A stretch of DNA of 60,768 nucleotides, counting the filler, from Jimgerdemannia flammicorona (lineage: Eukaryota), in assembly GCA_003990765.1 (NCBI GenBank). It is 3 parts of 3 records of this genome, joined end to end, with 100 filler letters (N's around TTAATTAATTAA, not from the genome) between each part and the next. Parts side by side here need not be neighbours in the genome. Positions count along the whole stretch, not along the records: positions 1 to 20,196 come from RBNJ01001738.1; positions 20,297 to 40,486 come from RBNJ01001739.1; positions 40,587 to 60,768 come from RBNJ01001740.1. One strand, given 5' to 3'. Within the stretch, counting starts at the first letter, position 1. Every line of letters begins with the position of its first letter. The position numbers and the translations under genes are program-made. Below, one piece after another: positions 309 to 46,858 of this stretch. The notes under the pieces are model-generated. The model did not search any database and was not told where the DNA came from. It saw nothing but the letters and a program-made list of their open reading frames with translations.

Positions 309-2370
309 TGTAAGAGGGTTGCTTTTTAGAATAACTGTTATATAGTTCTGAAAGGGTTTTCTGGAAGTTCTGGATATTCTGAAAGACCATTTTCTCATGG
401 TCAAGATCAATTTCATATGGAGTATATCCTCTACACTTATTGATTTCAAGATCAGGTTGACGTCTCAACCAAAGTCCTTTTTCGGACTAGTTCTGGATGT
501 TCGGGATTTTCTGTATTTCAGGAAGTTCAAGAAACTAAGACCAGCTTAGTTGAATTGGCATATTGCTGCAGACAATACCCAATTAGGAAATTTCATGATG
601 GAGTTAGGAGTGGGACCTAATGGGGAGCAGATTTACTTAAGAGTGGTTTGTGGGTTATTAAATGGATTTATTCGCTATTCATGATATTGTTATACTAGGA
701 GTAGTTGTGTGAAGGGATATTGTAGAGAAGTATTCAGGAATGTTCTTGTATGTTCGAGTCTGAGATTCTGAGGTCTGGAGGAGGGGGTATTTATACTAGT
801 GAGGGGCTATCTGGATTATGCTAAATATGGATGTAGCACTAAGTGCCTTGCTGAGTCGGAATGCAGTCACGTAGTACAAGGGTGATCTGATATATCAAGA
901 GATTATCTGACTACTGAGTCAGTTCACAGTCATATTGTATAAGGCTAATCTATCTATACTATGACTGCTAGACTATTTATAGGTTTAGGCACTATCTGGG
1001 TAGTCTTCAATGACATCACCATCAATTGCATCATTCCTGATGAAGTAGTCGTCTAGGAAGAGTGGTTTGTGGATTACTTCTCCTTATTGGCTGAGGTAGT
1101 AATACATTGGAACTTCATCTCCATCCCACAGGATAGCATCATCTGTTTCATATACTGGATAAGGTGTTGGGGGGCGAAGGATGGGTGTATTGTCTTCACT
1201 TTTATCGGATTCACTATCTGCATACCTTCTATAGGTTACAGCACTATGAGTCACGGGGTTGTAGTAAGCTGGCAGCTGTGGTTCATCTTACTCGTACTCA
1301 GGTAGTGGAGTTGTTGGTTCGATTTCAAGAGTTGTCTGAAGGTATAGGTTGTGTTCTCCAGTCTCTTCATTGTAGTTGAAGTAATCAGGGGTGAATGCCA
1401 GTTGGTATTCGTGCCTGTGGTCATTGTCTCAATAAGTCTCATATGTGGTTATGAACTGTTGTAAGTTCATCGGCAAGGTTGGCAGTGTGATCAGGGTTGG
1501 CAGGGATCCTTGGCTTGAGGTTATGTCCATGTCAGAGGGATCATTGTCTTCTGCTTTGTCTTCATCAAAGTGGATTATATCATAGATGTCCTTCATGGCA
1601 TATCCAACTTGGAGCATTTGCAGGATGTGATCGTCGGGGTGTGGGAAGGTTCTGTCTGTAGTCTGGACATACTTGAGATATTTGTGGTTGAGTTCTTGTA
1701 TCATGTCATCGATTTGGCCATAGGACAGGGTAGCAACCATTTCGCTGGTAGTAACTCGGAGGCAGGGAATAAAGGTGCTATACTCATAGAAAAGTTCTCA
1801 ATGTTTGCAGGCAATGAGCTTCTGGTGTTGGGACATCTGAGTAATGTCTGTATTGTGGTGGTGTTCGACCATGTCTTCTAGAAGGCGGCTGATCTGGTAG
1901 TAGCTTGAGATTTGTCTAATTCAGTGGGCCTCGCTAAGTATGTTCAGGGCATTCCATCAGGCTTCCACGAAGTAGAGGGATGCTAGGCTATGGATATTCA
2001 TGAGAGGCAGAGGGGGTGTGGCTCAGTTGACAATGGCATTCCAAATATCAGTGCAGATATGGTTATAGATCTTGGTGGTCATGTTTGTGTATTTGGAAGT
2101 TGTGGTTGTTATTTGTTTTGATTCTCTGTTTTGATATATCTCAGTGCTCGGTATATATGCATTTGGTCCTGATTAGTAAGATTCCATTTGTGTACATCTT
2201 GTGTTCTGTGACTTCATATTGACTCAGCTTTGTGAGCTGTGACTTCAGTTTGACTCAGCTTCATGATCAAGCAGATGATTTCCAGATTTGTTTGGAGGTC
2301 ACGTGTGATTTCGGTGGCTTGTTCAGAGGGTGACATGTGATTTCAGTGGCTTGGAGGTTGTGCGCTTACA
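309..2370 (-). repeat. Family A 3' LTR (2062 bp, TG...CA)
   Basis: TGTAAG at 309 and CTTACA at 2370; adjacent PPT at 2371-2384 (AAGAAGGGGAGAGT on minus); homologous to 8891-10501; TATAAATACCCCC box on minus at ~783-795. Confidence 0.92.
985..2082 (-). pseudogene. LTR(U3)-encoded accessory ORF of family A, 365 codons, unknown function
   Basis: ATG 2082 to TAA 985 in one frame with no indel (MTTKIYNHICTDIW...VIEDYPDSA*). Internal stops look like C>T/G>A products; several are sense codons in copies at 9567-10501 and 41443-42014. Includes track ORF 1429-1740. Confidence 0.75.
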
Positions 2371-2794
2371 ACTCTCCCCTTCTTAGCTTTCAACGTTCTC
2401 GTCAGAGCCTTCTAATTTTGTTCTAGTGTTGTTACACCATTTGGGAGGTCAAAAGTCCAGTAAAGTCCATTTTTTCAGAAAGTGGTATGCTCATAGTACA
2501 GTTGCCTAATGCATTGGATTCACACATTAAAGGGTCATGTATTCAATGCCATGCGCTGGAAGTGATTCTGATATCATTCACTGCTGGAGAATTTCCTCTA
2601 AGAAATCTTCTTAAATGTCTATGCCTCGTTTCTCACCAGTGGTATGGGGAGAATAGGCTTGCTTTCAGTTTTGCTATTTTTCTAGAGAGTCAGTATTCTT
2701 GTCTTGTTTTGCTGAGTTTTTTGATTTGTTTATGATAATAATGTTCGGGAGGGTAATATATACTATATACTGATAGGTGTTAGAGTATTTAGAT

Positions 2795-5700
2795 TTCAGT
2801 TGTTTAAGGAATCATATTCCTGAACTAAGTTGGTAGCATTCTGGAGGTTGGTCTTGGGTTTCCATGTGGCATCATGGATCAGGTAACCTTTCCATTTGAC
2901 AAAGTACTCAGGGTGGTTCTTGTTGCCACGTTTGTTGAGGATTTGTTCAACTTCATATTCTTCTTAGTCATTAATAATAACAAGTGCAGGTGGTTCGGTG
3001 GTTCGGTTCAGGAATAGCTTATCATCATTTTCATTGTATTGCTTGAGATGTTGAATATTGAAGACTGGGTGAATCTTAATGGTGTCTGGTAGTACCAATT
3101 TGTAAGAGGTAGGAGAGACTTGTGCAATAACTTCGAATGGTCCAATGAACTTGCTGTTCAGCTTCGTAAATGGTCTGTGCTTGAGGTTGTCAACTCGGTA
3201 TCCTCGGATGTCTAGTAGAACTTTTTCTCTAATATCAAAGGTTTCTTCTTGACAGTGTTGGTTAACATACTGTGACTGTTGTTCTTGAGCTCGTGATAAA
3301 TTCTTGATTGCGATCTGGCTTAGATTATGCATTCAGAGCAGGAATTCTTCAACAGCTTCAACTGTGGAGGGTTCATCAGTATTTCGGATGAGTGTCAGAG
3401 GGGTGTTTGGGTTTTGTCCAGTGTTGGCGAAGAATGGGGTCATTCCAAGAGAGGCTTGCTTGCTGTTGTTATATGCAAACTCAACTGTGGTGAGGTATTC
3501 ATGCCAATCATCCTATCTGTAGGAAACATAGTTCCTTAGCATTTGTTCCAGAGTTTGGTTCATTCTTTCGGTTAGGCTGTCAGTTTCAGAGTGAAAGGCT
3601 GTGGATAGTGCGAGTTTCGTTCCAAGGTGTGCATGGAGGGCTTTCCAAAAATGGCTAGTGAATTTCGGGTCTCAGTCACTAATGATGATCTTAGGAAGGC
3701 CATGATAGCGGAAGATATTGTCAAACAAGAGTGTGGCTATGTCTGGTGCTGTTGCAGTAGTAGTAGTTGGTATAAAGTGGGCTTGTTTGCTGAGATAGTC
3801 CATAAAGACAACAATTGCATCCTTTCTGTTCTTGGTTTGGGGTAGTTGTATAATAAAGTCCATAGAGATTTGTTTCCAATTTGCAGATGGTACTAGGATA
3901 GGGTAGAGTAGGCCAGGTTTTGCTAGTGTTGAGGACTTGTTCCATTGGCAGGCATCACAGGAAGTGATATAGGTCTTGAGCTGATCTGCCATGCAGAGCC
4001 AATAGAAGTTTCAGGAGATAACTTCATATCATTTATCAAATCCTAAATGTCCAGCTGTGGGGGCATCATGACATTCGAATAGGATAGTCCTTCAGAGGTC
4101 TTGGTTGTTTGGGACATATAATCTGTTCTTGTAGTAGATAGCATTATCCTTGAGTTGATACTGATTGTACCGGATATGCTTGTCAGCATCATCACTGTTC
4201 AGGATTTCATAGAGTGCTTGAGCTTCTTTATCATCAGCACATGCTGTGATAATTTGTTCCATGATAGAGTTTGTAACCAAGGTGAGAGTTTGGATGACTT
4301 CTTCAATGGGTGGTCTGGAGATTGCATTGGCAACAATATTTTCCTTGTCAGCATGGTACTGGATTTTATAGTCAAAGTTGGTGAGGACTTTCATCCATCT
4401 GGCTTGCTTTCAAGAAAGGATAGCCTGGGTCTTGATGTTGACTAGTGACTTGTGGTCAGTTAGTACAGTAAAGTGTGCTCCTTCTAGATATGGTCGCCAT
4501 TTAATCAGAGTGTCGACGATGGCTAGCATTTCCTTCTCATAAGTTGCATAATTGATTTCGGCATCATTGAACTTGCAGGAGTGATAGGCAACTGGGTGTC
4601 CTTCTTGCATGAGTATCGCTCTAAGAGCTAGGTCAGAGGCATTAGTAGTAACTTCATATGGTAGAGCAGGATTTGCCACTTGAAGTACTGGAGTGGTTAT
4701 CAAAGCATCCTTTAGTGCTTGAAAGGCAGTATCTTGTTCAGGTCCCCAATTTACAAGGTTGTTGAAGTCTTTTTCTTGTTTTGCGGTCCAGGGCTGTTCT
4801 TTTTCTTGCTGTGCTTTGTCATTTGAGTGAGGGCAGTAGCAATTTTGGTGAAGTTGGCAACAAATCACCTGTAATAGTTTGCTAATCCCAGGAATGACTA
4901 GAGGTCCTTCAGCTTCTTGGGCCTGGGCCAATCCTTGATTGTAGAGATTTTGCTAAGGTCTACTTTAATTCTATTTGGAGTGACAATGTGTCCAAGGAAT
5001 TGAATTTCTTTTAGGAGAAATTCGCACTTGCTGAGTTTTGCAAAGAGTTGGCTTTCTTGGAGTTTCAGTAGTACTAGTTCAAGGTGTTCAAGATGTTCCT
5101 CCAGGGTTTTGCTGAAGACTAGGATGTCGTCAATATAGACAACAACGAATTTGTCCAAATATGGGTGCAGGATAGTATTCATCAGTGTCTGGAAGGTTGC
5201 AGGAGCATTAGTTAAGCCAAAAGGCATAACCAGAAACTCGAAGTGTCCATAGTGAGTTCAGAAGGCTGTCTTGTAGATGTCTTCTTCTTTCATGGCAATT
5301 TGCCAGTAACTATTTTGTAAGTCAAAAGAGCTCATGAATTGTGGGTTGGTGAGTCTATTGAATATCTCATCAATTCTAGGTAGTGGGCAGCAGTTCTTGA
5401 TGGTCTGTTCGTTGAGGTCATGGTAATCAATGCACATTCACAGGTCTCCTCCTTTCTTTACAACAAAGAGGACTGGTGCACCATAGGGTGATATACTGGG
5501 TCTGATGAATCCTTGTTCTAGGAGTTCATCGATTTCCTTTTTGAGTACATCAATTTCTCTCAGAGACATGTGGTAGATTGACTTGAAGGCTGGTTTAGCA
5601 TCTGGAATAGTTTTGATGGCATAGTCTACTGCTCATTTGGGAGGTAGGCCTTTTGGGAGCTTCTTTGGGAATATGTCTCAGAATTTCTGGAGTAGTGGTC

Positions 5701-7927
5701 TGACATGGCTGTTAACTTTGGAAAAGTCTTCTTCAGAGTTCTCAGGTTCTCCTTTGGATGGATGGATAGAGATAGCAAAGAGAGGGAATTTCTTGGCCAA
5801 TTTCTTAAGTTGTAGCTTGTTGATGTGAGTGATCTTTGGTCTGGGGTCACTAGAACTGAGTATGTCCTTTTTGCCTTGCAGCTTGAAGTTGTAGCATTCT
5901 TTCTTGATGGTTAGAGAATGGTTTACCCAATCGATCATGGGGTTCTCTTATTTTAACCATGGAGTCCCAAGGATGATTTCATTATCTGGGAGTGGAACGA
6001 TTTGGAGAGTATTATATACTTGATAATCACCAATTCGGAAGGGCAGATTACAGACTTCTTTACTAATGACATGTGAGGTTCCATCAGCTGTGGCAACTGC
6101 TTGAGTTTGTTGTACTGGAGAGGTGAAGATCTTGAGTCTGTTAGCTGTTTCTTCATTGATGAAGTTGTCTGAGGCACTACTGTCTATCATAATCTTGACA
6201 GGTGCTCGGTTGACAAAAGTCTTAAGTGTGAGCAGTTTGTCTGATCCAATGGTAGTGATTTCGGTTGTAGACACTTTCCTTCTGTTGGTTCTTCTTTGAG
6301 CCAGTTTGTTAACACAAGAGAAGCAATCATCAATCATTTGAGAAGAGTACATTCCAATGCTATGGGAGCATCGGCCACTTGGTACATATCCATCTTCAAT
6401 TTTCTTGTAGAATTGTTCTTCTTTGTTTATGGTAGGTTGGGCTGTGGCCTTGTTTGATGAGCCAAATCCTTTGGATCCTCAGATGGTAGGTAGTAGTTTA
6501 GGGACTTCCTTGACTGTCAAAGTTGACTCAATTTTCTTGAATAAGATCTGGGCAATGCAGAAACCTATGGGGATCTTGAAGAGTGTCCAACTATGGTTTC
6601 GGATGAGGACAATAATTTCACCTGTATAATCTTCGTCAATGACTCCTCCTTCTACTGAGAGTCCTTTTAATGCTAGACTGCTGCGACAGCATATTCTTCC
6701 AACATGTCCTTCAGGAATTTGGATACTGATTCCTATGTAGACTTGCTTGACTTCTCAGTTGGAAACTGTAGCTTCTTCGGCTGCATACAGGTCATATCCA
6801 GCTGCTTTTTAACTTCCTTTGGTTGGGGCCTTAGCAGTTTGTCTTAACTTGACAAAGTCTAGTGTTCTGGTGGTCAGATTGTTGAGGTGGTGCAGAGTAG
6901 TAACAGTTGCTTGTATTGCTGTTCAGGGTTTTTGGTTGGGGCAGGCGCTGGCCATGTGTCCTGTCTTTCAGTAATAGAAGCATGCTCCACTTCTTCGAAG
7001 TTCATTCCTTTTGCCTTCAGTGAGTTTCTTGAAGGTACTTGGCTGCATGGGTTCATGATTTCTGGGTGTCCAAGAGGTGGATGTAGAGGGAGCTCGGGAT
7101 ACTTCATACTTGGGTTTTTCTTTCTTGGTCCAAGTCTTTTCCTTACTATTGAATTGTCTTCAGGGCAGAATTGGTCCAGCTGTTAGGATTCACTTAACCA
7201 TGGTCTTGATTCTTGCCAGGCACTATTGTTGGTGATTGCAACCAACTGGGCAGCCTTGTTCTCAGATTTTTCTAGTAAGCCATTCAGGCAGTGCATCATA
7301 TAAATGGTCTGCTCTTGTACCATTTCGTGCTTCATCATTGGCAATATATCCTAGGCCAACAGTGTTCAGGAGTGACTTGAGTTTTGTACAGAAGGTTTCG
7401 AATTCTTCTTTGCCATATATATCGAATTTGAGGTTATGGAGTTTTACTTGAGATTTGGCAATCATGGTTTCACTGCGATATTGAGCAATCATGAGTTGTT
7501 TGAGTCCAGGGGCTGCAGGATGAGCTCCATATCCTGGGGTATTGTTTGCTGCATTCTGAGCAACTACTGCAGATTGGGTGTCCCATGTGAGGGGTTTTTC
7601 AGGAAGGGTTCGCCACCATTCTTCAGCGGGTCCTCGGAAGAAGGTAACAACTCAGCGGACATAGGCTGTAGTGGTAGCAAAGAGTTGTTCTAGAGTGTGG
7701 TCTTGATTGTTTATCAGAATGCAGTCAGCAACTCGCTCATTGGTCCATTGATTGGCTTCGAAGTTGGTATCAACTACACTAATGAAGCTTTGGACTTCTT
7801 ATACAGTGCCATTGAAGGTAGGTAGGCTCAGATTTTTTGTAGGTCAGGTCTGTTCAGCTAAGGCAGTAATGGTTGCTGCCATTATGGCCACCTGGGCTGT
7901 GAGGTCTAGAATCTGTTGGTTCACCAT
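2795..7927 (-). pseudogene. Family A gag-pol: Gag, CCHC knuckle, dUTPase, aspartic protease, RT, RNase H, integrase, chromodomain
   Basis: IMIDSSASDNFI (PR), [23 protein letters not shown] (RT), TNASDLAL..YEKEMLAIV (RH), ISMDFIIQLP (INT), KFIGPFEV (GPY/F), EYEVEQILNK..YFVKWKGY..DATW (chromo, ~2810-2966). Confidence 0.95.
6455..6865 (-). pseudogene. dUTPase domain within family A polyprotein (between NC and PR)
   Basis: Motifs AGYDLY, GRICCRSSLALKG, GGVIDEDYTGEI, IAQI, (R)GSKGFGSS read by hand. Confidence 0.9.
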
Positions 7928-8875
7928 ATTGTTTACTGGAGGTGGTTGGACTACTGGTAGTAGTGTTACTGTTACTACTTGGGGTACTGGTGCAGAGTGT
8001 GAGAATGTTCTTTGGGTCTGTGTAAGTTGCTGGAGTAGTAGTTGTGGGTCTGGGGTGACAGCTTGATAGATAGCTGTTTGTTGCTGTGTAGGTGTATTCT
8101 GTCCTGATGGATGTGCTTCTCCTTTAGTAGTATGTCTGGGATCAAATTCACTGAGATACTCCTTCTCTTCTTTGGTTTGGTCCCCGTGTAATTAGGTTTG
8201 CTCGGCGTCAAAGTAGATGGAATCAGTTGTATATCTGATTTCAGAAGGACTTAATTCAAAGTCAAGTTCTGGTTCGGTATTAGTTTCAGGTTCAGGTAGG
8301 GCTGTAGCAGGGCCTGCTTCTGGTTCAGAGTCAGATAGTTGATGAAGGGTTTCTCTTGCTTCTTCTTTAAGAATATGGCAGGCCTTGCTGTTCTAGAATC
8401 AGTAGTATAATGCAGTCTTGGTCCTGGTATGGTAGAAGTCGGTAGAGTTGAGCTACTTGGCTACAGAGGCTTGGGCTTCATGAGGAATTATGGCTAGGAA
8501 GACTGCTGCTGGTTGTCCTAGGTCGCTCAGATTTATAGAGCTGACAAAACTCTTGTTAAGAAGAGTAAAGAAGGCTTCAATAAGACCTTCTTTATCTTGA
8601 CTTGCTGGGTATAGTGCAAGGAGTTTGGTGAATAGGGTTTCACCTATTTGCTGGTTTAATCGGAGTACTTCTTTCTTTGAATGAAGTTTGTCCTACTTGT
8701 TGCAGGTGTGGAGGTCAAATTGTCCTTGTACATCAGGTTCAATTCTCTCCAGATTGTCAGATGGTTCAGGATAAATTCCAGCTCAGAGGTTGGGCTTTAT
8801 ACCAACTTATAGAAATTCGCAGAGGGGTTTGTAGCGGGGTGAGGAAGCATCTTGAAGTGGAATTTGGATTGTAAA

Positions 8876-8887
8876 CCGCTGCTACCA
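8876..8887 (-). promoter_or_regulatory. Primer-binding site, probably initiator tRNA-Met
   Basis: TGGTAGCAGCGG 3 nt after the LTR end; same motif in family B at 18848-18859, 24905-24916 and 38390-38401. Confidence 0.75.
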
Positions 8888-8890
8888 AGT

Positions 8891-10501
8891 TGTAAGAGGG
8901 TTGCTTTTTAGGGTAACCATTACATAGTTCTGGAAGGGTTTTATGGAAGTTCTGGATATTCTGGAAGACTGTTTTCTTATAGTCAAGATCAATTTCATAT
9001 GGAGTACATCCTCTACACTTATTGATTTCAAGATCAGGTTGACGTCTCAACCAAAGTCCTTTTTCAGACTAGTTCTGGATGTTCAGGATTTTTCATATTT
9101 CAGGAAGTTCAAGAAACTAAGACCAGCTTAATTGAATTGGCATATCACTGCAGACAATACCCAATTAGGAAATTTTGTGATGGGGTTAGGAGTAGGACCT
9201 AATGGGGAGCAGATTTACTTAAGAGTGGTTTGTGAGTTATTAAATGGATTTATTCACTATTCATGATATTGTTTTACTAGGAGTAGTTGTGTGAAGGGAT
9301 ATTGTGGGGAAGTATTCAGGAATGTTCTTGTGTGTTTGAATCTGAGATTCTGAGGTCTAGGGGAGTAGGTATTTATACTAGTGAGGAGCTATCTGGACTA
9401 TACTAAATATGGATGTAGCACTAAGTGCCTTGCTGAGTTGGAATGCAGTCACATAGTACAAGGGTGATCTGACATGTCAAGAGATCATCTAACTGCTGAG
9501 TCAGTTCACAGTCACGTCATACAAGGCTAATCTATCTATACTATAACTGCTAGACTATTTATAGGCTTAGGTACTATCTGGGTAGTCTTTGATGACATTA
9601 CCATCGATTGCATCATTCCTGATGAAGTAGTCATCTAGAAAGAGTGGTTCGCAGATTACTTCTCCTTGTTGGCTGAGATAGTAATACATTGGAACTTCAT
9701 CTCCATCCCACAGGATAGCATTGTCTGTTTCATATGCTGGATAAAGTGTTGGGGGTGAAGGATGGGTGTATCGTCTTCGCTTTCATCAGATTCACTGTCT
9801 GCATACCTTCTATAGATTACAGTACTATGAGTCACAGGGTTGTAGTAAGCTGGTGGCTGTGGTTCATCTCGCTCGTACTCAGGTGGTGGAGTTGTTGGTT
9901 CGATTTCGAGAGTTGTCTGAAGGTACAGGTTGTGTTCTCCGGTCTCTTCATTATAGTTGAAGTAATTGGGAGTGAATGCTGGTTGGTATTTGTGCTAGTA
10001 GTCATTGTCCCAATAAGTCTCGTATGCAGTTATGAACTATTGTAAGTTCATCGGCAAGGTTGGCAGTGTGATCAGGGTTGGCAGGGATCCTTGGCTTGAG
10101 GTCATGTCTACATCAGAGGGATTATTGTCTTCTGCTTCATCTTCATCGAAGTAGATTATATCATAGATATCCTTCATGGCATATCCAACTTGGGGCATTT
10201 GCAGGATGTAATCGTTGGGGTTTGGGAAGGTCCTGTCTATAGTCTAGACATACTCGAGATATTTGTGGTTGAGTTCTTGTATCATGTCATCGATTTGGCT
10301 GTAGGACAGAGTAGCAACCATTTCGCTGGTAGTAACTCAGAGGCAGAGAATAAAGGTGCTATACTCATAGAAAAGTTCTTGATGTTTGCAGGCGATGAGC
10401 TTCTGGTGTTGGGACATCTGAATAATGTCTGTATCATGGTGGTGTTCGACCATGTCTTCTAGAAGGCAGCTGATATGGTAGTAGCTTGAGATTTGTCTGA
10501 T
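8891..10501 (-). repeat. Family A 5' LTR, truncated by the family B LTR
   Basis: Colinear with 309-1920; ends abruptly at TGTAATAAC (10502). Confidence 0.92.
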
Positions 10502-11317
10502 TGTAATAACTCTCACTTCTATCCCTCTTATCCTTTGGATAATTAGGGAAGTAGACTATTACTTAGGGACTTAGTATACAATGTGTACCAAGAAGCCTTC
10601 AGTTTGAGGAAGCGCTTGCTTAAAGTAGTTGTAGTGGCAGTGCCTTATCTTTCAAAGGTCTTTTTCTGGTTTGCCTTCTGTTTCAAAGGTCTTTCTCTTG
10701 TGTCCTATTTCGAGGGTCTTGTTCTTTGCTGTGCACAGACTGAATTCGCCTTGGAATTCAGGTTCAATGGGTTTACTTAAGTCTTTGTGATTTGTATACC
10801 AGTCTCAGTTCTGGCAGAAGTTAGCTAAGCTTCTGGAGTTTAGTCAGAAACACTAGAGTCACTTAGATATCATTACTAAGACTCAGGGGAATGTGTGTAT
10901 GTGGGGGGGACTTGATTCTTGTATCAAGGACTGAACTAAAACTGCTTTATTTCGAATGGAAACTGGGGGGTATTTATACAAGTTGGTCCATGATTTCTGA
11001 CTAAGTATGAGTGACTAATTTGGTAACTATAATGAGGTTTGTGATCATGACCTTTGTCAGGTGGTTTTTAGCAAAAACAACTTTGTGATCAGGACCTCAA
11101 TTACTAGGCAATGATCAGCTGCTGTGGCAACTGTTACTGCGGCGCCGATTATTGGGAATAAGCTGGATATCATTTTCCATGTTGTTTCGCATTGTTTGCA
11201 TCATTTGTCATTTGTAATTCATATGTTGTGCTTTGTTCATATGATGATGTCATTGCTCGCTGGGTCACGTGATCGCTTGTTGTTCGTCGCATCCCATCTG
11301 TTTGTCATTCTATTATA
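10502..11317 (-). repeat. Family B 3' LTR (B1)
   Basis: TGTAATAAC...TATTATA (element-start TG mutated to TA) followed by a pyrimidine run (PPT on minus). Confidence 0.9.
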
Positions 11318-11328
11318 TCCTTCCCTCT

Positions 11329-18700: not shown

Positions 18701-18761
18701 TTTCCTGGTACCACCTGGTCCTAATGGCAAGGGCTTCTCTGGCTCTGGTTTGAGGATCCAC
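12780..18761 (-). pseudogene. B1 pre-gag extension plus gag-pol (CCHC, dUTPase ~16495-16915, PR, RT, RH, INT, chromodomain)
   Basis: Track ORFs 17802-18761, 17211-17651, 16257-16781 (GGVVDQGFTGEI..KKGFGST), 15789-16127 (SGATGNYIS), 14757-15197 (YIDD), 13542-14081 (HHCC/INT), 12780-13061 (chromo). Confidence 0.95.
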
Positions 18762-18862
18762 AGTTGTTTCTGGGGGTTACTCCTGTCCAAGGTTGGTCTT
18801 GTTCCAACTTCAGAAGTATGTTCTTTGGTGCCTTCTTGGTTGGTAATCTGCTGCTACCAAGT

Positions 18863-24901: not shown

Positions 24902-25003
24902 ACTTGGTAGCAGTGGATTACCAGCCAAGAAGACACCAAAGAACACACTCCTGAAGTTGGAACAAGACCAATCTTGGACAGAAGTAACCCCTAGAAATAA
25001 CTG

Positions 25004-33604: not shown

Positions 33605-33615
33605 GGTGGGAAGGA

Positions 33616-34464: not shown

Positions 34465-37400
34465 GCTGATACCTTTTGGGGGTCCACATTGATACCTTCA
34501 GCAGAGATGATGTATCCTAGGTATTCAATCTGGTCTTAGTAGAACTTGCATTTGCTCATCTTGGCATAGAGCTGGTGTTCTCGCAGAAGGGTCAGTACTT
34601 GTCTGAGATGGGTGTAGTGTAGCTCTACTGTCTTGCTGTAGATTAGTATATCATCAATATACACAAGGACACAGATGTTAAGGAGTGGTCCAAAGATGTC
34701 ATTCATCAGATACTGGAATATTGCTAGTGCATTGGTCAATCCAAAAGGCATGACTTGGAACTAGTAGTGTCCAAACCGTGTTTGGAAAGCTGTCTTCTCA
34801 ATATCCTTCTCATCAATGAGAATCTGGTGGTAGCCATTTCACAAATCCAGTAGAGAAAAGGTCTTGGTCTAGAAGATTTGGTGTAGCAACTCATCAATCC
34901 TGGGCAAGGCATACTGGTTCTTGATAGTGATCTTGTTGAGGGCTCTGTAGTTAATACACATTCATAGAGAGCCATCCTTCTTCTTGACAAATAGAATGGG
35001 GGCTCCAAATGGAGAGTGGCTGGGTTCAATGTATCCTTGGGCCAGTAGTTTGGTCAATTCATCCTTGAGGGTCTTGAGCTCAGGTTGAGCCAGTTGATAG
35101 ATACTCTTGTATGGGGGTTCAGATTCTGGAATAAGATCAATTTCATGTTGAATTTGGCACTTGGGTGGAAGTCCTTGAGGATCTTGAAATACATCTTGGA
35201 ATTCTTCAAACAGTTCTTGAGCTTCTGTTGGAATTGGACTACTTGTAGCTTCAGTGACTTCTTGTACTGTACAGATGAAGTAGGTGTTTCTCTTTTTTCA
35301 AGAGAGTCTCTTCATTTGAATGGCAGAGATGATTTCAATTCCTTGGTGGTTGATATCTTTTTGAGGTATCAGGGTAATCTTTCTGCCTTCATGGGTCAGG
35401 TTAACCTTGTTAGTTCTCTAGTTGATGTCTGGGTTGTATTGGGTCAACCAGGCTTTTTCTAAGATAATGTCTTGTCCTGGGAGATCTACAATGCTGAAGT
35501 CCAACTTCTTTTGATATTTGCCAATCTTGAGCAAAAGGTCTTCACAGATCTTGGTCAATGGTGCAGTATTTCCATCACCAAAGGTAACACTTCTTTTCTC
35601 AGTAGTTGGTCTGCTTCGGGCTCCAATCCTCTTAGCAGTCTTAGTGCTGATGTAGTTTCCAGTAGCACCACTATCAAGCAAGACATTGACATTTTGTCTG
35701 TGGACTTAGCCTGTGAACTTGATGCAACTATCCTCCTTCTTGACAGTATTGAGCTCTTCATCCTCATTATTGTCCCAATTGCTGTCAGTCTCCTCGAAGT
35801 CAGTTTCTCCCCATTCTTCACAAGGAGGGTTGTCTTGTTTGGGTTTCTCAGTCTGTTGAGCTTGGCGCTTCTCGGATTGAATTTTGAAAACTTTAGAGAG
35901 GCATGCATGGCATTCACCAACATGTTCCATGCAGTATATTTGAATAGAATGAGGGCATTGTCTACATGGTGCATAACCATCTGTAATTCTCTTGTACCAG
36001 TTTTCATCATCTTCCTTCATGGTAGTGACCTTTTGACTGGGAGGTTTGTTGGTAGATCCAAACCCTTTCTTGCCATGGTCTGTCTGGGAGAGTTTGGGGA
36101 CTTCTTCAATGGTGAGATCTTAACAGATTTCTTCAATGATTGCTTGGGCAATTCTTTGGCCTACTTTGACTTCAAATGATGTATCTCCAAAATTTCACAA
36201 GATGACATGGATTTCACCAGTAAATTCTTGGTCAACTACTCCTCCTCCTAGCCCAATGTTGAACTCTTTGGCTAGGCTGCTTTGCTCAGCAAGGCAGATG
36301 TATGTACCTCTGGAGGCTTGTATTGCAATTTCTGTTCATACTGTAGCATTGGTACTTGGTGGGATGGTGAGGTCTTGGCTGCTGTAGAGGTCATATCCAG
36401 CATCAGTTGGGTGAGCCTTAGTGGGGATGGTAGCCTTGTACCATATCTTCTGTACTTTGATAACATTCTTGGGGTTCTTCTTTCCTGGGCCTTCTCCAAT
36501 GACAGTAATGTTCTGGTTACCAGGTTCACCTGCTCTATTCTTCTTTTCAGGGCATCTGAATGAGATGTGTCCTGCCTTCTTACAGATGAAACACAATCTC
36601 TTTTCATGGAGCTGCCTCTTTTCATCCTCAGTGGGAGGTCTGAATCCCCTGGGGTTTTGCTGGTTCCTTTGATAATTCTATTGATCATATCTTTGATCAT
36701 TTCTCCTGGTGGGGTTTCTCCTATCTTGGTTATCCTTCTTGTATTCTTGATTTCATAGAGCTTGTGCAGCAAGGATTTTGTGGGCTCTTCTTTGTACTTG
36801 GGCAAAGCACCATGAGTAGTGGGGACATCCTTGGGAGAGACCTTGTTCCTTGATCTTCTGGGTGAGCCAGTCTGGTAGGGCTGCAAAGAGATGGTTGGCT
36901 CTGGTACCATTGATGGCCAAATTGTTTTCCTGATAGGTAAGTCCAACAGTTTTGAGATAGGCATCTATTCTGGTGACAAAGGTCTCTAGATCCTCTTCAC
37001 CATTCTTGTGAAACTTCATCTGGGATAGTTTGTTCCATGTTTCTTGTATGTAAGCTGCATTTTGGAATTTGGTCAGTAGCAAGGCCTTGAGTCCTGGGCC
37101 TGCTTCATAGTCATCCCAACCTGGTCTATTATTGCCAGGTACTTGTCCATTGACTTAAGGGTGGGCTTCCCAGGTTACTGGGTGTTATTCCAAGGTTTGC
37201 CAGAATTCGGCTGCTGTTCCAGTGAAGAATGTGGCTACTGTTTCTACTTGTGCTGCTGATGTGGCAAACAGCTGTTGAAGGGTGCTGTTCTGGTTGTTGG
37301 TGAGCATTCCTATAGGTACTCGGTTGTCATTCCATTGGTTTGCTCAGTAGCCTGTGTCAACTGCATTGATGAAGTTTTCAATGTCACTGTTTTTTCCACT

Positions 37401-39215
37401 GAATGTTGGGATTTGCAAAGTCTTGGTTGGTTTGTTCTGTTCAGCAATCTGTCCTACTATCTCTGCTAGTGCTGCTAGCTGGGTGGTCAGTGCTGCAATG
37501 TTGATATCTACCATTGTGCTGACTATTGGTGGTGGGCCTGTTGGGGTAGATTCTCCTGAAGATTGTTCCACTTGGTGGGGTTGTGGTGCTGTATGACTTG
37601 GAGTTACTTGGTTCCCAGATATTAAGTCAAAGAGTCCTGTGAGAGAGGGTAAACCAAACCTCTGTATAGGTGGCTGAGTTGGTTCTGGGGTCTGATCTTC
37701 TTGACCTGTGGTTCTTTGGTAAATTCTTAGGCCTGCTGTTCCTTGTTGGCTATCGTCAGACTGATAACCTATAGAGTCTTCGTCTGACTCCCTTCCCTGA
37801 TGAAATAGTACATCCTTGTACTGACTAGATCCTTCAAAGAGGATATCAGTCTCTGGCTGGGTTGATGGGCCTGCTCCTTATTCAGCAGTAGGGGATGGAT
37901 GGCCTGCTTGCTCATTCTCATACCTAGTTATGGCAGAGGCATAGTATACAACTAGCCTGTAGTAGAGGGAGGTCTTGGTTGATATATGATGATACCTGTC
38001 AGAGGCACTCTACTCAGCAGCTGCTTCTCTTGCAGCAGGGGGTGTAGTATAATCTAAAAAATCCTGGGTGGCTGCAGCAGTAGATTCTGGGGTCCTAGTG
38101 GTTCCAATGTGTCCTCAGAGGAGTTTGTAGAACCTATGGTGGCTAACAATATTCCTAAGTCCTGGGTGGTATGTTCTAAAGGCCTGGTATAGATCCTTGT
38201 AAGCCTGGTCAATTACAAGCTAGTGGGTCCTTGGGTCTGTGGTTTCCTGGTACCACCTGGTCCTAATGGCAAGAGCTTCTCTGGCTCTGGTTTGAGGATC
38301 CACAGTTATTTCTGGGGATTACTCCTGTCCAAGGTTGGTCTTGTTCCAATGTCAGGAGTGTGTTCTTTGGTGCCTTCTTGGCTGGTAATCCGCTGCTACC
38401 AAGTTGTAATAACTTTCACTTCTACCCCTCTCTTATCCTTAGGATAATTAGGGAAGTGGACTATTACTTAGGGACTTAGTACACAATGTGTACCAAGAAG
38501 CCTTCAGTTTGAGGAAGCACTCGCTTAAAGTAGTTGTAGCAGCAGTGCCTTATCTTTCAAAGGTCTTTCTCTGGGTTGCCTTCTGTTTCAAAGGTCTTTC
38601 TCTTGTGCCCTATTTTGAGGGTCTTGTTCTTTGATATGCACAGACTGAATTCGCCTTGAAATTCAGGTTCAATGGGTTTACTTAAGTCTTTGGGGATTTA
38701 TATACTGGTCTCAGTTCTGGCAGAAGTTAGCTAGGCTTCTGGAGTTTAGTCAGAAACACTAGAGTCACTTAGATGTTATTACTAAGACTCAGGGGAATGT
38801 ATATGTGTGGGGGGACTTGATTCTTGTATCAAGGACTGAATTAAAAACTGCTTTATTTCAGATGAAAAACTGGGGGGTATTTATACAAGTTGGTCCATGA
38901 TTTCTGCCTAAGTATGAGTGACTAATTTGGTAACTATAATGAGGTTTGTGATTGTGACCTTTGTCAGGTGGTTTTTGGTAAAGAATATCTTTGTGATCAG
39001 GACCTCAATTACTAGGTAATGATCAGCAGCTGTGGCAACTATTGTTGTAGTACCAGTTGTCAGGGATAAGCTGGATATCATTTTTCATATCATTTCGCAT
39101 CATTCATCCATTTGTTATACATATGCCATGCTCGATCGTATGATGACGTCATCACTGGGTCATGTGATCATTCATCTCATCACATCCCATCTGTTCACTC
39201 ATTTGTTCTATTACA
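34465..39215 (-). mobile_element. Family B copy B4, 5' half (RT to gag, PBS, 5' LTR 38405-39215)
   Basis: Colinear with 14911-19641; dUTPase ~36050-36465; PBS 38390-38401. Confidence 0.93.
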
Positions 39216-40463: not shown

Positions 40464-40486
40464 CTTTTTTTCTTTTGTTTTTTTTT

Positions 40487-40586
40487 NNNNNNNNNNNNNN
40501 NNNNNNNNNNNNNNNNNNNNNNNNNNNNNNTTAATTAATTAANNNNNNNNNNNNNNNNNNNNNNNNNNNNNNNNNNNNNNNNNNNN
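40487..40586. other. Artificial assembly linker N44-TTAATTAATTAA-N44
   Basis: Same structure as 20197-20296. Confidence 0.95.
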
Positions 40587-41442
40587 AACCAAGACCTGTT
40601 ATCCTTGTACAACCACCGCCACTAAGGACAGCCTTAATCTTACAAGAGATAGAAGTGACGACACCTTGAAACTGATGATGTCGGAAGTCAGAAAACTACT
40701 CAGACTTTGCCAGTGATGATGTCATCAATAGTGATGTCATCAAGGACTAACCAGACAGTGCCTAAACCTATAAATAGCTTAGCAGTTATAGTATAGATAG
40801 ATTAGCCTTGTACGACGTGACTGTGAACTGACTCAGCAGTCAGACGATCTCTTGACATGTCAGATCACACTTGTACTACGTGACTGCACTTCGACTCAGC
40901 AAAGCACTTAGTGCTACATCCATATTCAGCATAGTCCAGATAGCCCCTCACTAGTATAAATACCCCCTCCCCCAGACCTCAGAATCTCAGACTCGAACAG
41001 ACAAGAACATTCCTGAATACTTCCCCAACAATACCCCTTCACATAAATACTCCTAGTATAGCAATATCATGAATAGCGAATAAACCTATTTCATAACCCA
41101 CGAACCACTCTTAAGTAAATCCGCTCTCTGTTAGGTCCTACTCCTAACCCCGTCACAAAATTTCCTAATTGGGTATTGTCTGCAGCGATATGCCGATTCA
41201 ACTAAGCTGGTCTTAGTTTCTTGAACTTCCTGAAATACGGAAAATCCTGAACATCCAGAATTAGTCCAGAAAAGGACTTTGGTTGAGACGTCAACCCAAT
41301 CTTGAAATCAATAAGCGTAGAGGACGTACTCCATACGAAATTGATCTTGACCATAAGAAAATGGTCTTCCAGAATATCCAGAACCTCGAGAAAACCCTTC
41401 TAGAACTACGTAACGGTTACCCTAAAAAGTAACCCTCTTACA
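40587..41442 (+). repeat. CpG-rich (young) family-A-type LTR 3' portion with a divergent upstream segment
   Basis: ~40730-41442 matches the reverse complement of 309-1020 and ends CCCTCTTACA; retains many CG dinucleotides. Confidence 0.85.
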
Positions 41443-42391
41443 AAGCAGAAGACAATGACTCCTCTGATGCCGATATGACCTCTAGTCAAGGATCTCTGCC
41501 AACTCTGATCACACTACCAATCTTGCTGATGAACTTACAATAATTCATAACAGCATATAAGACTTATTGGAACAATGACCACTAGCACGAATACCAACTC
41601 GCGTTCACCTCTGATTACTTCAACTACAATGAAAAGACCAGAGAATACAACCTGTACCTCCAGACAACCTTCGAGATTGAACCAACCACTCCACCACCCA
41701 AGTATGAGTGATATGAATCACAGCCACCAGCTTACTATAACTCTACAACTTATAGTGCTGTAACCTACAGAAGATATGCAGACAGTAAAACCGATGAAAG
41801 TGAAGATGATGCACCCCTCTTTCGCCCACCAACACCTTATCCAGTATATGAGACAGATGATGCTATTCTGTGGGATGGTGACAAAGTTCTAATATATTAT
41901 TATCTCAGTGAACAAGGAGAAGTAATCTGTGAACCACTCTTCCTAGATGACTACTTCATTAGAGATGATACAATCAATGGTGATGTCATTGAAGACTACC
42001 CAGATAGTGCCTAAACTTATAAATAGCCTAGCAGTTATAGTATAGTTAGATTAGCCTTATACAATGTGACTGTGAACTGACTCAGCAGTCAGATGATCTT
42101 TTGACATATCAGATCACTCTTGTACTACATGACTGCATTCTGACTCAATAAGGTACTTAGTACTACATCCATATTCAGTATAGTCCAGATAGCCCTCACT
42201 AGTATAAATATCCCCTCCCACAGACCTTAGAATCTCAGACTTAAATACTTGAACAATCCAAACACAACTCCTGAGTACTTCCCCACAATATCCCTTTACA
42301 CAACTACTCCTAGTATAGCAATATCATGAATAGCGAATAAATCTATTTAATAATCCACAAACCACTCTTAAGTAAATCTGCTCCCCATTAG
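41443..42391 (+). repeat. Older family A LTR fragment, including the 3' part of the LTR ORF (stop at 42014)
   Basis: Colinear with the reverse complement of ~617-1556; truncated at both ends. Confidence 0.88.
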
Positions 42392-45213
42392 ACCAAGACC
42401 TTTAAGTATGATATCTTCAAGAATCTCAGTCAACAAAAGGTCAATGCAACCTTTGGTCAGCTTGCAGAAATCCCAACATTCAGACAGCAAATGAGGTTTG
42501 GACTTGCCGAAACAACCAAGGAACAAGGATGGAAGATAACTGAGGCCAATAATGTTCAAGAGAACTCAGGAGAAGAAAGTGAGGACAATTGCAAAACCTC
42601 TGCTTATGCAATATACCAAATCAAAGATAGAACCTTTGAAGCCATCATTGATATGGGAGCAGGAGGATGTCTCCTCAGTAAGAAGGCAGCAGACTGCCTA
42701 GGTTGGGATGTGGAAGAAGCAACCAAGCTAGTATTCGTCACAGCCAATGGCATAAGAGCTACACCTCTAGGAAAGATCCGAGATGTTCCCATCAAGATCG
42801 GAGGAGCAACAATCCCAATAGATGTAATCGTAACCAATGCCACCAACTATGACATCCTTATCAACAATCAATGGCTTCACAAAGCCAAGGCAGTAATCGA
42901 TCTCAATACCCAGAAGATGCAAATCACCTACTGGGGACAGAAGATATGAATTCCCATCAATGTCAACAAAGGAGTCCTGCCCGATATGGAGGAAGAAGAG
43001 AGCAAGCAAGAGGAAGCTTATATGGTGACTACCCTAAAGAAGAAAAAAGTCAGATGGATGAGTGAAGAAGAATGGTGCAAGAAGATTACAAAAGGCTATG
43101 CCCCACAAGGAGTCTGTCCTCATGGAATCAAGATGTACTATATAGAGCATGTCAATGATTACTATCAGTGCACCATCAGAACCAAGAAGATCTACCAGGA
43201 AAGGAGGCAGAAAGCTCTTGAAAAACAGATCAGAGAGGAAGAGAAGGAGGAAGACAATGAACCACCAGCCCTCCTGGAGGACAGTGATGATGAAGAAGAA
43301 ATCAAGGTCAAGATTCGAAAAATCCACCCTGATGCAGTCTTGCCGGAATACAAGTCAGAAAATGCAGCCAGAATAGACATCGCTACAGTAAAAGAAACTG
43401 TACTGAAACCCCAGACAACCACCCTACTCGCAACTGGACTGGAGATGACCATACCAAAGGATCATGTCGGAATTCTCAAGACAAGAAGCAGCCTGGCTAG
43501 AAGCGAAATTACAATCGAAGGAGGAGTCATTGATTCAGACTATACTGGAGAGATTCTACTCATTGCTAGGAACCACAATTCTACAATTCCATTCCCAGTC
43601 AAGAAGAAGGACCAATTGGTACAGATGTTGATCTTTCCAATCATACAGCCAAGGATCATAGAAGTCAAGAATCTGGAGGAAATGAAAATAGGAAAGAAAG
43701 GATTCGGATCCACAGGAAGAGGAGTATTCACCAGTACCAAGATCACTGAACTCGAGCACAAGAAGGAGGAAAACATGAGCAAGCACAGTTACACCATTAG
43801 AGATGAATTCCCACTCAAGGAGAAACTCAAGAAAATACTCCACAAATTCAAGGATGTCCTTGCCACAGATTTCAAGGATATTAAGAGAAAGACCCTACAC
43901 TACTATCATGAGGTAGATACTGGAGACACTGAACCAATTTATCAGAAAGCAAGACCTGTCCCGCCAGCCTACTGAGAATGGCTCAGAGAAGAAATCAAGC
44001 AGATGGAAGAAGCTGGTATCATCAAAGAAGCCAGCAGCCCCTAGTCTTCACCAGTTGTACTAGCCCCAAAAAAAGGAAGCAAACCTGGAGAATTTGCCCC
44101 AAGGCTCTGTGTCAACTACAGAAAGCTCAATACAGTCACCAAGAAGGATCGCCAACCACTGCCGCTCATCAGCGACATTCTTATAACACTGGGAGACAAA
44201 GCACAGTACTACAGCACCTTGGACTTATACTCAGGATTCCACCAAATCAGACTCACAGAAGTGGCAAGTGAAAAGTCAGCCTTCATCACCCCAGATGGAA
44301 CCTATATCTATCTATAAATGCTATTCGGAATGTGCAATGCACTAGCAAGCTTTCAGCGAATGATGAACAAAATCTTCTACTATGACATGGGAAGATGGAT
44401 GATGGTCTATGTCGATGATGTAATCATCTACAGCAAGATGGCCAAGGAACATCTGCAGCACATACAGCAGATAATAGAGAGACTAAGACAACATGGCCTT
44501 TATATCAAACCCAAGAAGTACAAGTTTGTGGAAATCGAGATCTCCTATCTTAGCCATATCATCAATCGAGATAGAACACACATGGACTCCCTCAAAATAC
44601 AAGTGGTAGCAGCATACCCAAGGCCCACTACTGTCACAGAAGCCCAAGCCTTCATGGGACTTGCCTCCTACTATCGCAGATTCATTAGAGGATTCTCCAA
44701 CATCACAGGCCCAATCTACGAACTCAACAAGAAGGATACCAAGTTCCAGTAGACTGGCATACAACCTCAAGATCAGACTAACTCAGGCACCCATCCTCAG
44801 ACAACCCAATTGGACCCAAGAATTTATCCTTCAGATGGATGCAAGTGCATAAGAACTAGGAGCAGTCCTAGCTCAAAAAGAAGACAAAAAAGAGTATGTC
44901 ATTGCATATCTTAGCTACAGAACCCGAGGGGCTGAAAAAGAATACAAGTCCTATAAGTTGGAATGCCTTGCAGTCATCTGAGCTATGGAAAAGTTCCACT
45001 ACTATCTGGCCAGAAGATACTTCACCATCCAGACAGACCACTCAGCTCTCACCTGGCTACTGACAACCAGACAACCTAAGGGAATCTATGCCAGATAGAT
45101 AATGAAGTTACAAGCCTATGATGTAACCATCGTGCACTGCCCTGGAAGAACAAATTCCAATGCAGATGCTCTCTCACAGATACCTCAAACCACCTCCAAC
45201 CAACAAATCAATC

Positions 45214-46407
45214 ATGAATAAGGAGCTCTACTATGGAATTATCACATACCTGGGATAGCGAAAGATGCCCCAACATCTGGAAGAATGGACACAAATGATT
45301 ATCAACAGGACATAGAAACAATTCGAAACTGATGGAGAAACACTGAAGAAAGGAAAACTACTGGTCATACCAGAACACAAGAAGGAGTAAGTGATGAAAT
45401 CAGTACACGAACTTGGCCATCTAGGAGGAATGAATACATATGACAAGGCAAGAAGAACAATATGGTGGCCAGGGATGGAGGAAGATATCAGACAATTTGT
45501 CAAGACATGCAACAAATGCCAGAAACAGAAACAAGACCAACAGAATCAAGCCCCAGGATCAGCACACATAGAACCAGTACCATTTGCCCATATAGCAATG
45601 GATGTAATCGGCCCTCTACCCTTGACTCTGACTGGTAACTGATACATCATTGTCATCATAGACCTTTTTATGAAGTGGATAGAAGCAGGACCTCTCAAGG
45701 AAGCCAATGCACAGTCAATTGCCGATTTCTTCCACAAGGAAATCATCTGCCAGTTTAAGACCCCAACACAAGTAACTATAGACAGAGGAACAGAATTTAT
45801 GAACCAGCTCTTTGAGGTTCTCTACAAGAAGTACAAGATCCAGCACATTTGGACCACAGCCTATCACCTCCAAGGAAATGGACAAGTAGAAAGGACTAAC
45901 AAAACTCTCAAGAATGTTATCACCAAGATCTGTGATAACTATGAGAACTGGAATCACTATCTGCTAATAGCATTATCTGCTCTCCGGGATATCCAATCAC
46001 AAAGTACCCACTTTACCCCTCGAGAAATGCTATTCGGAGAAGAATGTTCTCAAGGAACCCTATCATCCAATGGAGATGCTGTATGGAAACATGTGGACAT
46101 GGAAATACGGAGACTACACCAAATCAGGAAGAAGGCTGAGGATTACATAACCAAGGTGCAGACACTACAATGGAGGAATGCGGAAAAGACCCACAAGCCC
46201 TTGGAGATTATCAAGATAGGAGACAAAGTCCTAGTATATCGGAATATGGTGGAAGCTTCATGGTCACGAAAACTGGAGCCCAAGTGGGAAGGACCTTACC
46301 TTGTGCAAGATATAAAAGAGACCACCTTTTGGCTATGAAAACCCTCAGGCACAATAATCTCCACCACCATTCACCAAAACTGACTTAAGAAATATCATGG
46401 CCAGTAA
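45214..46407 (+). pseudogene. Family C integrase, apparently a separate ORF
   Basis: Starts at ATG 45214, overlapping the RNase H frame stop (45219-45221); in frame with track ORFs 45391 and 45670; ends after GPY/F. Confidence 0.75.
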
Positions 46408-46858
46408 CAAAAGTACTACAATGGCACTCAAGATCACTAGTGCTGCCCAAAGAGCCATCGAAAGATAATGGCACACCACTGAGCCTCTGACTATAGAGCC
46501 ATACTATGAGGATATTCTGAGTATTGTGCAGACTCATCTCTCTCGGATCTCACACTTTAGAGCCTATCAATATTGGGCAGAATTCCAAGAGTACTTCAAG
46601 CTTGGACAGGTGCTCAATCAGGATCCAGCAAAGACCAAGGAGGACTGAATTGTCGAGTGTCAACTCTTCTACTCACAGATCACTATTGCCAAAAGGATCC
46701 ACAAGTTATTCCGAGAAGATGAAGCAGCAATAGACCACCTGAGAGGAGTAACCCCTACTGACTTCGAGAAAGTGAGAAGACATTATTGGGAAACAGACAT
46801 GCAGCAAATTGTATAGTACAAGACCATACAGACCATTGAAGCCTGGGAGTTTGAATAG
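46397..46858 (+). pseudogene. Family C 3' accessory ORF3 (~153 codons)
   Basis: MASNKSTTMALKITSAAQRAIE...YFKLGQVL...IAKRIHKLFREDEAAIDHLRGVT...WEFE*; three internal stops consistent with C>T; motif shared with the A and B accessory ORFs. Confidence 0.68.

Follow-up and report, generated by a model that had tools for sequence, protein, structure and literature searches.

In the genome of Jimgerdemannia flammicorona (assembly GCA_003990765.1), three families of decayed long terminal repeat (LTR) retrotransposons of the Ty3/Gypsy type, here called A, B and C, each carry an additional open reading frame (ORF) at the 3′ end of the element. The families lie nested in a stretch of 60,768 nucleotides, in the following called the window (60.8 kb, analyzed over its whole length), and all of them bear a dUTPase domain. 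The additional ORFs of all three families are real genes, of which intact relatives under selection exist elsewhere. The interpretation we favor, by a modest degree, is that they represent one conserved accessory gene, the 3′-most gene of three dUTPase-bearing Gypsy families, which would form its own transcription unit and encode a regulatory or adaptor protein. An unannotated accessory protein family of this kind had been proposed in an earlier note, written from the DNA alone. That note overlooked that ORF A lies in the U3 region of the LTR, that TATA boxes are conserved upstream of the start codons, and that family A contains a chromodomain.

The ORFs were found where the earlier note had placed them: at 2082 down to 985 on the minus strand in A (365 codons, seven in-frame stops), at 12138 down to 11329 on the minus strand in B1, the first copy of family B (269 codons, four in-frame stops), at 32818–33604 on the plus strand in the second copy, B2, and at 46397–46858 on the plus strand in C (153 codons, three in-frame stops). 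The description of their lesions as C>T stops applies to A, B1 and C, but not to B2, which contains no stop and is instead interrupted by a frameshifting deletion of 44 nucleotides (nt), in addition to an in-frame insertion of 21 nt. CpG is strongly depleted in the window (observed/expected ratio 0.16). Since the differences between sister LTRs are in general nearly all transitions (130 of 138 between the LTRs of A), in-frame stops are expected products of decay, and the window copies of the accessory ORFs are pseudogenes that decayed via CpG-type transitions.

Intact relatives of the ORFs, with 57–76% identity, were identified in metagenome collections, where they are either unnamed or at most labelled “hypothetical protein”. 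For B, a word-based search yielded one relative and a full HMMER search over 1.84 billion cluster representatives yielded five (P0004, P0005/P0026, P0007, P0008, P0019, P0009, and P0010 are the relatives of ORF B); B1 and P0004 are 64% identical over 203 amino acids (aa) in an ungapped alignment. The metagenome contig L001 harbors an intact B-type ORF of 291 codons followed by the same junction of stop codon, polypurine tract (PPT) and LTR start (“TGTAATA”) as in B. Comparison of B1 with L001 by the Nei-Gojobori method gave proportions of nonsynonymous (pN) and synonymous (pS) differences of 0.238 and 0.684, respectively, and thus a dN/dS (omega) of about 0.16; the first 215 codons alone give about 0.10, the tail about 0.5. 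At the nucleotide level, the ORF is 66% identical and the upstream spacer about 49%. A value near one, which would have spoken for absence of selection, was not observed. The relative of A, P0006, is intact as well and 65% identical over A residues 115–364, with in-frame gaps only. Eight relatives were found for C, at 58–76% identity, among them three full-length proteins (P0011, P0021, and P0025), each of exactly 153 aa and with matching ends. Queries of viral contigs with A, B, and C yielded no related locus, and among metagenome contigs A likewise yielded none and B only L001. Across sequencing runs, related sequence occurs mostly in soil metagenomes, in one root metagenome and in two coded organisms, with a best word share of 0.22; the contigs of one run include thousands of related pieces at 85–99% identity.

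That all copies in the window carry stops or a frameshift counts against functional genes and, together with the lack of any Pfam family for the ORFs, might suggest chance open frames in decayed repeat DNA which encode nothing. This explanation is already contradicted by the intact relatives, with their in-frame gaps only, and by the dN/dS value; in addition, the other two frames over ORF A contain 16 and 34 stops, compared to seven in the frame of the ORF. We regard it as hardly credible.

It is very likely that the B and C proteins belong to one homologous family. The motifs on which the earlier note had based a common origin were all recovered (YYQISRLL in A, EYEIGH.L in B, and YFKLGQVL in C), as was the second conserved block 21–24 aa further on. 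A profile-profile comparison of B and C with hhalign gave P=6.3e-5 over 74 columns in the register proposed in that note, and two separate MAFFT runs aligned B and C gap-free over about 120 columns, so that C is equivalent to the helical domain at the N-terminus of B. A hidden Markov model (HMM) of B, built from metagenome B proteins only and with the window sequences excluded, was run on the six-frame translation of the window, cut into 612 chunks; its best matches outside B were ORF C in first place (E=6.6e-4) and A in second (E=0.3). The same HMM scored four intact C proteins at 22.8, 22.5, 14.2, and 7.0 bits, and the highest of these scores, obtained with P0011, was reached by none of 5000 shuffles, a significance that, as for all shuffle nulls used here, is overstated because shuffling loses the helical periodicity. 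In the opposite direction, the C-HMM assigned 13.5 bits to P0010, a divergent member of B, a score reached by one of 5000 shuffles.

The accessory protein of A probably belongs to this B and C family as a weaker member. When a joint HMM of B and C was searched against the window, A was the top match outside both families (9.4 bits, E=0.034). The match covers A codons 64–131 in the expected frame and register, and its score was reached by no chunk in a null set of 18,972 (reversed or shuffled) and by one of 5000 shuffles of the A chunk. The assumption of a single family, as put forward in the earlier note, can therefore be regarded as well founded for B and C and as probable on weaker evidence for A, whereas pairwise similarity alone does not carry it.

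Apart from the overstated shuffle significances, several further observations weigh against a gene common to all three families. Pairwise Smith-Waterman scores are at noise level, with 53 (A-B), 540 (A-C), and 514 (B-C) of 2000 shuffles reaching the respective score, and B was missed when the six-frame chunks of the window were searched with the C-HMM. With the single-family HMMs, A reached only 5.7 bits (B-HMM) and 2.4 bits (C-HMM). The profile-profile check, so clear for B and C, gave P=0.016 with a probability of 2.8% for B and A, and P=0.45 for C and A. Taken on their own, the noise-level pairwise scores, the C-A comparison and the low best score of A would be compatible with three unrelated ORFs, acquired separately as lineage-specific third ORFs, whose common pattern stems from convergence or chance among small helical proteins; diverse ORF3s are reported to have been acquired repeatedly by LTR retrotransposons (PMC5408684). 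This explanation appears unlikely in view of the reciprocal match of B and C at the profile level, in one register and gap-free. Moreover, pooling B and C raises the score of A above that of either single HMM and makes A the top outside match among the 612 chunks, and the ORFs of all three families occupy the same terminal position and lie at the same distance from a TATA box.

A second alternative accepts B and C as one family and takes A as a different gene, or as coding only from residue 115 and hence situated wholly in U3 like sag of mouse mammary tumor virus (MMTV), the likeness of A and B being due to chance. The points in its favor also count against the membership of A. P0006 scores −0.8 bits with both HMMs, and since this sole relative begins at A residue 115, codons 64–131 are left without independent coding support; furthermore, four of the seven stops in A fall within the first 95 codons, one of them at the first bases of the LTR. 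Against this stand the joint-HMM match at just these codons with its rarely reached score, the presence of a sense codon in place of the codon-95 stop in the copy within the 5′ LTR, and the TATA-like box which precedes the ATG at 2082 at a distance like those in B and C. In addition, A and B are sister chromoviruses with similar spacers between pol and the ORF (about 640–690 nt). We consider this alternative possible, at a probability well below that of its membership in the family.

The position of the accessory gene relative to the LTR has shifted between the families. In B, the gene stops at the PPT: the stop codon of ORF B1 directly adjoins the PPT (11318–11328), followed by the LTR start at 11317, and the PPT of B2 is located at 33605–33615 on the plus strand. 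In C, the gene starts inside the end of pol and ends 27 nt short of the PPT (46886–46894), with the LTR starting at about 46896. In A, the gene crosses the LTR boundary and lies mostly in U3. ORF A begins 160 nt inside the element (codons 1–53 are internal) and then runs into U3; as the 3′ LTR starts at about 1921–1923, codons from about 55 to 365 are in U3, corresponding to about 310 of 365 codons in an LTR of 1.63 kb. The claim that the ORFs lie downstream of integrase thus holds for B and C, but has to be modified for A, where the ORF is inside the 3′ LTR from about codon 55. Consistent with this layout, the U3 part of ORF A recurs in the 5′ LTR and in LTR pieces at 41440–42391, and wherever an ORF A stop has a counterpart in the 5′ LTR (four cases, the stop at codon 95 among them), that copy shows a sense codon. 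Two overlapping A-type LTR pieces, arranged head to tail at 40716–42391 (A coordinates 1034 down to 309, then 1559 down to 617), contain part of a third ORF A copy and adjoin the truncated 5′ end of C.

That ORF C starts in the final few codons of pol bears on the question whether the ORFs are separate genes at all. On the assumption that the TGAs at 46336 and 46381 arose by decay, the pol frame of C reads to the TAA at 46405–46407 and overlaps ORF C by 11 nt; a weak SH3_Tf2-1 match spans both TGAs up to the start of ORF C. Such an overlap would suit coupled translation, and the ORFs could then be C-terminal extensions of Pol produced via frameshift or read-through, or be translated by reinitiation on the genomic RNA. 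We consider this very unlikely, as A and B possess long spacers between pol and the ORF, namely about 690 nt in A, where pol ends near 2770, and about 640 nt in B1 (12139–12782 on the minus strand, from the pol stop after the chromodomain to ORF B). Furthermore, the ORF frame of L001 is open only from position 325, which is 51 nt upstream of its ATG, and TATA boxes precede the ATGs in all cases. The B spacer contains a block of 45 nt (12389–12432, minus strand) with 80% identity to positions 10–54 of L001 (E=1.2e-4), which may be a cis-regulatory element. A T-loop-like sequence in the same spacer, GGTTCGAACC, does not belong to a recognizable tRNA, as a tRNA scan of the whole window yielded no matches; an Rfam scan of the window gave none either.

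Each accessory ORF is preceded by a TATA box or TATA-like box at a similar distance. In A, a TATATA at 2152–2157 (minus strand) starts 75 nt upstream of the ATG; in B1, the box AAGTATAAATACCC at 12205–12210 (minus strand) starts 72 nt upstream, and in B2 the box at 32746–32751 (plus strand) lies equally 72 nt upstream; in C, a TATAAA at 46311–46316 (plus strand) starts 86 nt upstream and is located inside the end of pol. The TATA box of L001, 80 nt upstream of its ATG, has been kept although the surrounding spacer diverged. For comparison, TATA[AT]A occurs 65–95 nt upstream of 41 of 2215 ATGs in the window (1.9%), a range that was chosen post hoc, after the data had been seen, which reduces the weight of this figure as support for a dedicated promoter. 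The B box reads GTATAAATACCC and has the same core as the LTR promoter boxes of A, B, and C. Within the LTR of A, a TATAAA at 976–981 (minus strand) follows within 10 nt after the ORF A stop, and a second box of the GTATAAATACCCC type is found 186 nt further on at 790–795 (minus strand). These two boxes, which correspond to LTR positions 941 and 1127, are presumed to form the LTR promoter of A.

From the arrangement of these boxes we infer that the accessory gene may be expressed from an internal promoter. Among the sequencing runs that contain the stretch, none is recorded as RNA. In one run whose RNA label is a guess, a single contig of 946 nt covers 11257–12161, that is, ORF B flanked by 23 nt on its upstream side and by 60 nt of LTR on the other, while the depth of this run is high on LTRs and zero over most of A pol. 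As contigs can show neither transcript starts nor transcript levels, this contig was not counted as evidence for a subgenomic RNA.

The accessory protein is a soluble, non-membrane protein whose shared part is an all-helical domain of about 120 aa. No transmembrane segment was found in eight proteins from the three families, in which the highest 19-residue Kyte-Doolittle mean ranged from 0.19 to 1.05; by this measure, the proteins do not display the signal peptide or transmembrane character of env-like ORF3s of the errantivirus, Athila or Tor type, and the earlier assessment that they are not env-like was borne out. In A and B, a conserved linker connects this domain to a long tail that is acidic (isoelectric point about 4.0–4.1, again as anticipated), rich in proline and equipped with short hydrophobic-acidic motifs. 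C consists of the bare domain. The shared helical domain is near neutral (isoelectric point 6.4–7.2), and a simple binding of nucleic acids is therefore not favored.

Secondary structure in the AlphaFold2 models of both B and C is helical, in agreement with the helical protein predicted before. Searches for known folds and families remained without a hit. In Pfam-A, seven of the eight proteins matched no family at E<=1 and the eighth gave only sub-threshold matches to RAMP and DUF5338, which agrees with the view of an unannotated family. A PDB profile search yielded no matches at E<=10. The structural check with modelling and Foldseek that the earlier note had suggested led to poor models and no usable fold match: the B model was not used for a fold search, and the low-confidence C model gave no PDB match at E<=0.001 and only generic helical bundles at E>=1.7. 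The ESM Atlas contained solely unnamed or unrelated small helical clusters; a match of 0.89 to a Mucoromycota-labelled “hypothetical protein” cluster can serve as a lead, but settles nothing.

Taken together, the favored interpretation of an accessory gene with its own transcription unit could be specified as follows. Located 3′-most in each element, the gene would be transcribed independently, from an internal, LTR-like promoter up to the poly(A) site in the 3′ LTR, and its product would serve the element as a regulator or adaptor. Such a protein is favored in view of its solubility, its near-neutral helical domain, and the acidic, proline-rich tails of A and B. In the version we prefer, it would be an activator of both the LTR and the internal promoter, similar to the foamy virus protein Tas, with the acidic tail as an activation or recruitment module, but this specific proposal is tentative and is drawn by analogy. 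A role in RNA handling comparable to that of CERV from the Cer1 element, or a role against silencing, may apply instead. Some protein data weigh against the favored interpretation: C has no acidic tail and the helical domain is not basic, which weakens the simple reading as a DNA-binding domain combined with an activation domain; the AlphaFold2 models are poor (mean predicted local distance difference test score, pLDDT, 39.7 for B and 57.0 for C); and neither Pfam, PDB, Foldseek nor the ESM Atlas provided any functional hint from fold or sequence matches.

A more far-reaching proposal, which we hold to be rather doubtful, sees these elements as “complex” retrotransposons. An ancient regulatory gene predating the split of chromoviral and non-chromoviral lineages would have been combined with a copy of the LTR promoter, would exert a Tas-like or counter-silencing feedback, and would have been absorbed into U3 in one lineage. 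If this were true, every LTR of that lineage, including solo LTRs, would carry most of the gene.

Accessory genes that overlap the 3′ LTR are well known from retroviruses. The nef gene of human and simian immunodeficiency viruses (HIV/SIV) and sag of MMTV are ORFs that overlap U3 of the 3′ LTR or lie within it. ORF A resembles them in crossing the LTR boundary, in its large share of codons in U3, and in the LTR TATA box right after its stop; it differs in that this layout is confined to family A, in the missing sequence relation, and in belonging to a Gypsy element and not to a retrovirus. The foamy virus genes tas and bet are likewise 3′ accessory genes reaching into U3. The likeness to them comprises the 3′ accessory gene extending to U3 and the internal TATA core of B, which is identical to the LTR core; unlike the foamy virus system, there is no sequence similarity (no matches in Pfam and PDB), the elements here are Gypsy elements without env, and the role of the promoter is a prediction from the DNA. 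Tas and Bet are described to be expressed from an internal promoter, and Tas to activate both this internal promoter and the LTR (PMC13220597).

Third genes have also been reported from LTR retrotransposons. In some Tor elements of Oikopleura, the third gene is driven by an internal promoter, Penv, which lies either within pol or in the intergenic region that follows it (PMC4402516). They share with the elements described here the Gypsy-like organization with a third gene, which in Tor, however, encodes a membrane glycoprotein (env), whereas the proteins here have no transmembrane segment. CERV of Cer1 from C. elegans is a non-env accessory protein that functions in nuclear export of the genomic RNA and is produced from a spliced mRNA (PMC10309623). 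The resemblance lies in the accessory, non-env nature of a protein which an LTR retrotransposon encodes and which has a regulatory role, the difference in its expression from spliced mRNA; no likeness to CERV surfaced in the general searches, none of which was aimed at it. In the plant element Retand, antisense TRP28 ORFs are located between pol and the 3′ LTR (PMC11963269), and the Botrytis element Boty is reported to carry an antisense gene, brtn (cited in PMC8365987); the ORFs studied here have the same location between pol and 3′ LTR, but are in sense orientation. The ORF3s of bdelloid rotifers, which are of env-like, GDSL, DEDDy, coiled-coil (CC) or transmembrane types, occur in non-chromoviral clades and in dUTPase-bearing elements (PMC5408684). 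The combination of dUTPase and an ORF after pol is thus shared, while these domain types are not, given that the ORFs here match no Pfam family.

Comparable in element type are fungal chromoviruses, for some of which an “add. ORF” with unknown function is drawn (Novikova et al., 2010; PMC2864245). These are chromodomain-containing Gypsy elements with dUTPase at varying positions, some of them with an additional ORF; the available text on them describes no family, promoter or LTR overlap, and the comparison with the ORFs presented here is one by description only. dUTPase-bearing Gypsy elements are reported there from the basidiomycetes Phanerochaete and Postia and the ascomycete Tuber, with a likewise variable dUTPase position among the Postia elements (PMC2864245).

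Extra ORFs in LTR retrotransposons are therefore of an already known kind. What appears to be new is a selected protein family common to chromoviral and non-chromoviral dUTPase-bearing Gypsy lineages, together with a TATA box of its own before each copy and the absorption into U3 in one lineage. No description of this accessory family was found in the literature, a search that did not extend to Repbase and GyDB. Accessory genes set “complex” retroviruses apart from simple ones, and they have barely been described in LTR retrotransposons outside of animals and plants. A shared and selected non-env protein would offer a tractable entry to self-regulation or counter-silencing of retrotransposons, all the more if the gene has its own promoter and, in one lineage, sits inside the LTR. 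On the practical side, such ORFs are annotated by gene callers as hypothetical proteins of the host, in genomes as well as in metagenomes. This noise would disappear with a named family, which would also flag long, partly coding LTRs.

The assignment of the elements is based on a Pfam scan of every stop-to-stop frame of 70 aa or more (249 in total), on self-blastn, and on the inspection of junctions for primer-binding site (PBS), PPT, and LTR ends. The window is a nest of decayed dUTPase-bearing Ty3/Gypsy elements in which the domains zf-CCHC, dUTPase, aspartyl protease, RVT_1, RT_RNaseH, Integrase_H2C2, rve, SH3_Tf2-1, and Chromo recur in series. The order RVP/gag-asp, RVT_1, RT_RNaseH, Integrase_H2C2, and rve was found in A, B, and C, and together with LTR pairs, PBS, and a PPT before the 3′ LTRs of B and C it places them in the Ty3/Gypsy group (Metaviridae). 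By the identity of their pol translations in the main tblastx segments (A-B about 46–51%, A-C 34–39%, and B-C about 41% in RT), A, B, and C are three separate families.

Element A spans 292–10502 on the minus strand, with LTRs at 292–1921 and 8876–10502 that are 91% identical over 1630 nt, and has the domain order gag-dUTPase-PR-RT-RNaseH-IN-SH3-chromo. Element B1 (10501–19641, minus strand; LTRs 10501–11317 and 18862–19639) is chromoviral and contains dUTPase. Element B2 (24088–34467, plus strand) has LTRs at 24088–24904 and 33616–34467 and a 1.2-kb insert at 29776–30962, and truncated B fragments are located on the minus strand at 20307–24087 and 34465–39215. The A-type pieces at 40716–42391 (plus strand) consist of LTR sequence only. 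Element C (42392 to about 47354, plus strand) is a 5′-truncated, non-chromoviral Gypsy element with the domain order PR-dUTPase-RT-RNaseH-IN and a 3′ LTR from about 46896; it is followed by C′, an inverted partial copy of C on the minus strand (50006 down to 47354).

The chromodomain was detected in A (2811–2957, minus strand, on a translation with stops read through as X; E=2.3e-14), in B1 (12783–13088; E=1.6e-14), and in B2 (E=2.4e-11), but in none of three read-through frames of C at E<=0.1. The occurrence of the accessory gene in both chromoviral and non-chromoviral lineages, as stated in the earlier note, was thus confirmed. dUTPase sites are located at 6482–6754, 16260–16781, 23460–24167, 27119–27439, 36339–36677, and 42950–43972; the domain lies between gag (zf-CCHC) and protease in A and B and between protease and RT in C.

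The 5′ LTR of A ends in …TTACA, followed by the PBS-like sequence TTGGTAGCAGCGG, and the 5′ LTR ends of A, B, and C′ are all of the …TTACA type (8861–8875, 18847–18861, 24905–24919, and about 49745–49760). The primer-binding sequence TTGGTAGCAGC(G/A)G is common to A and B, while C′ has TTGGTGCCCATTGG. Purine tracts precede the 3′ LTRs of B and C; a PPT of A is not obvious at the junction.

The insert at 29776–30962, situated in the integrase region of B2, represents a 1.2-kb repeat with a second long copy at 59568–60745 (84% identical), and fragments of the same repeat at 1–308 and 19642–19833 flank the block of A and B1 on both sides. The plus strand of the region 52000–58300 is strongly enriched in C (GC skew to −0.47, GC about 50%). 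The region contains an RVT_1 fragment on the minus strand at 53910–54446, while its plus-strand frames of 351 and 393 aa gave no Pfam match; it is probably another kind of retroelement. Finally, paired runs of 44 N at 20197–20296 and 40487–40586 adjoin points at which elements are truncated, and they may represent masked or unresolved sequence.

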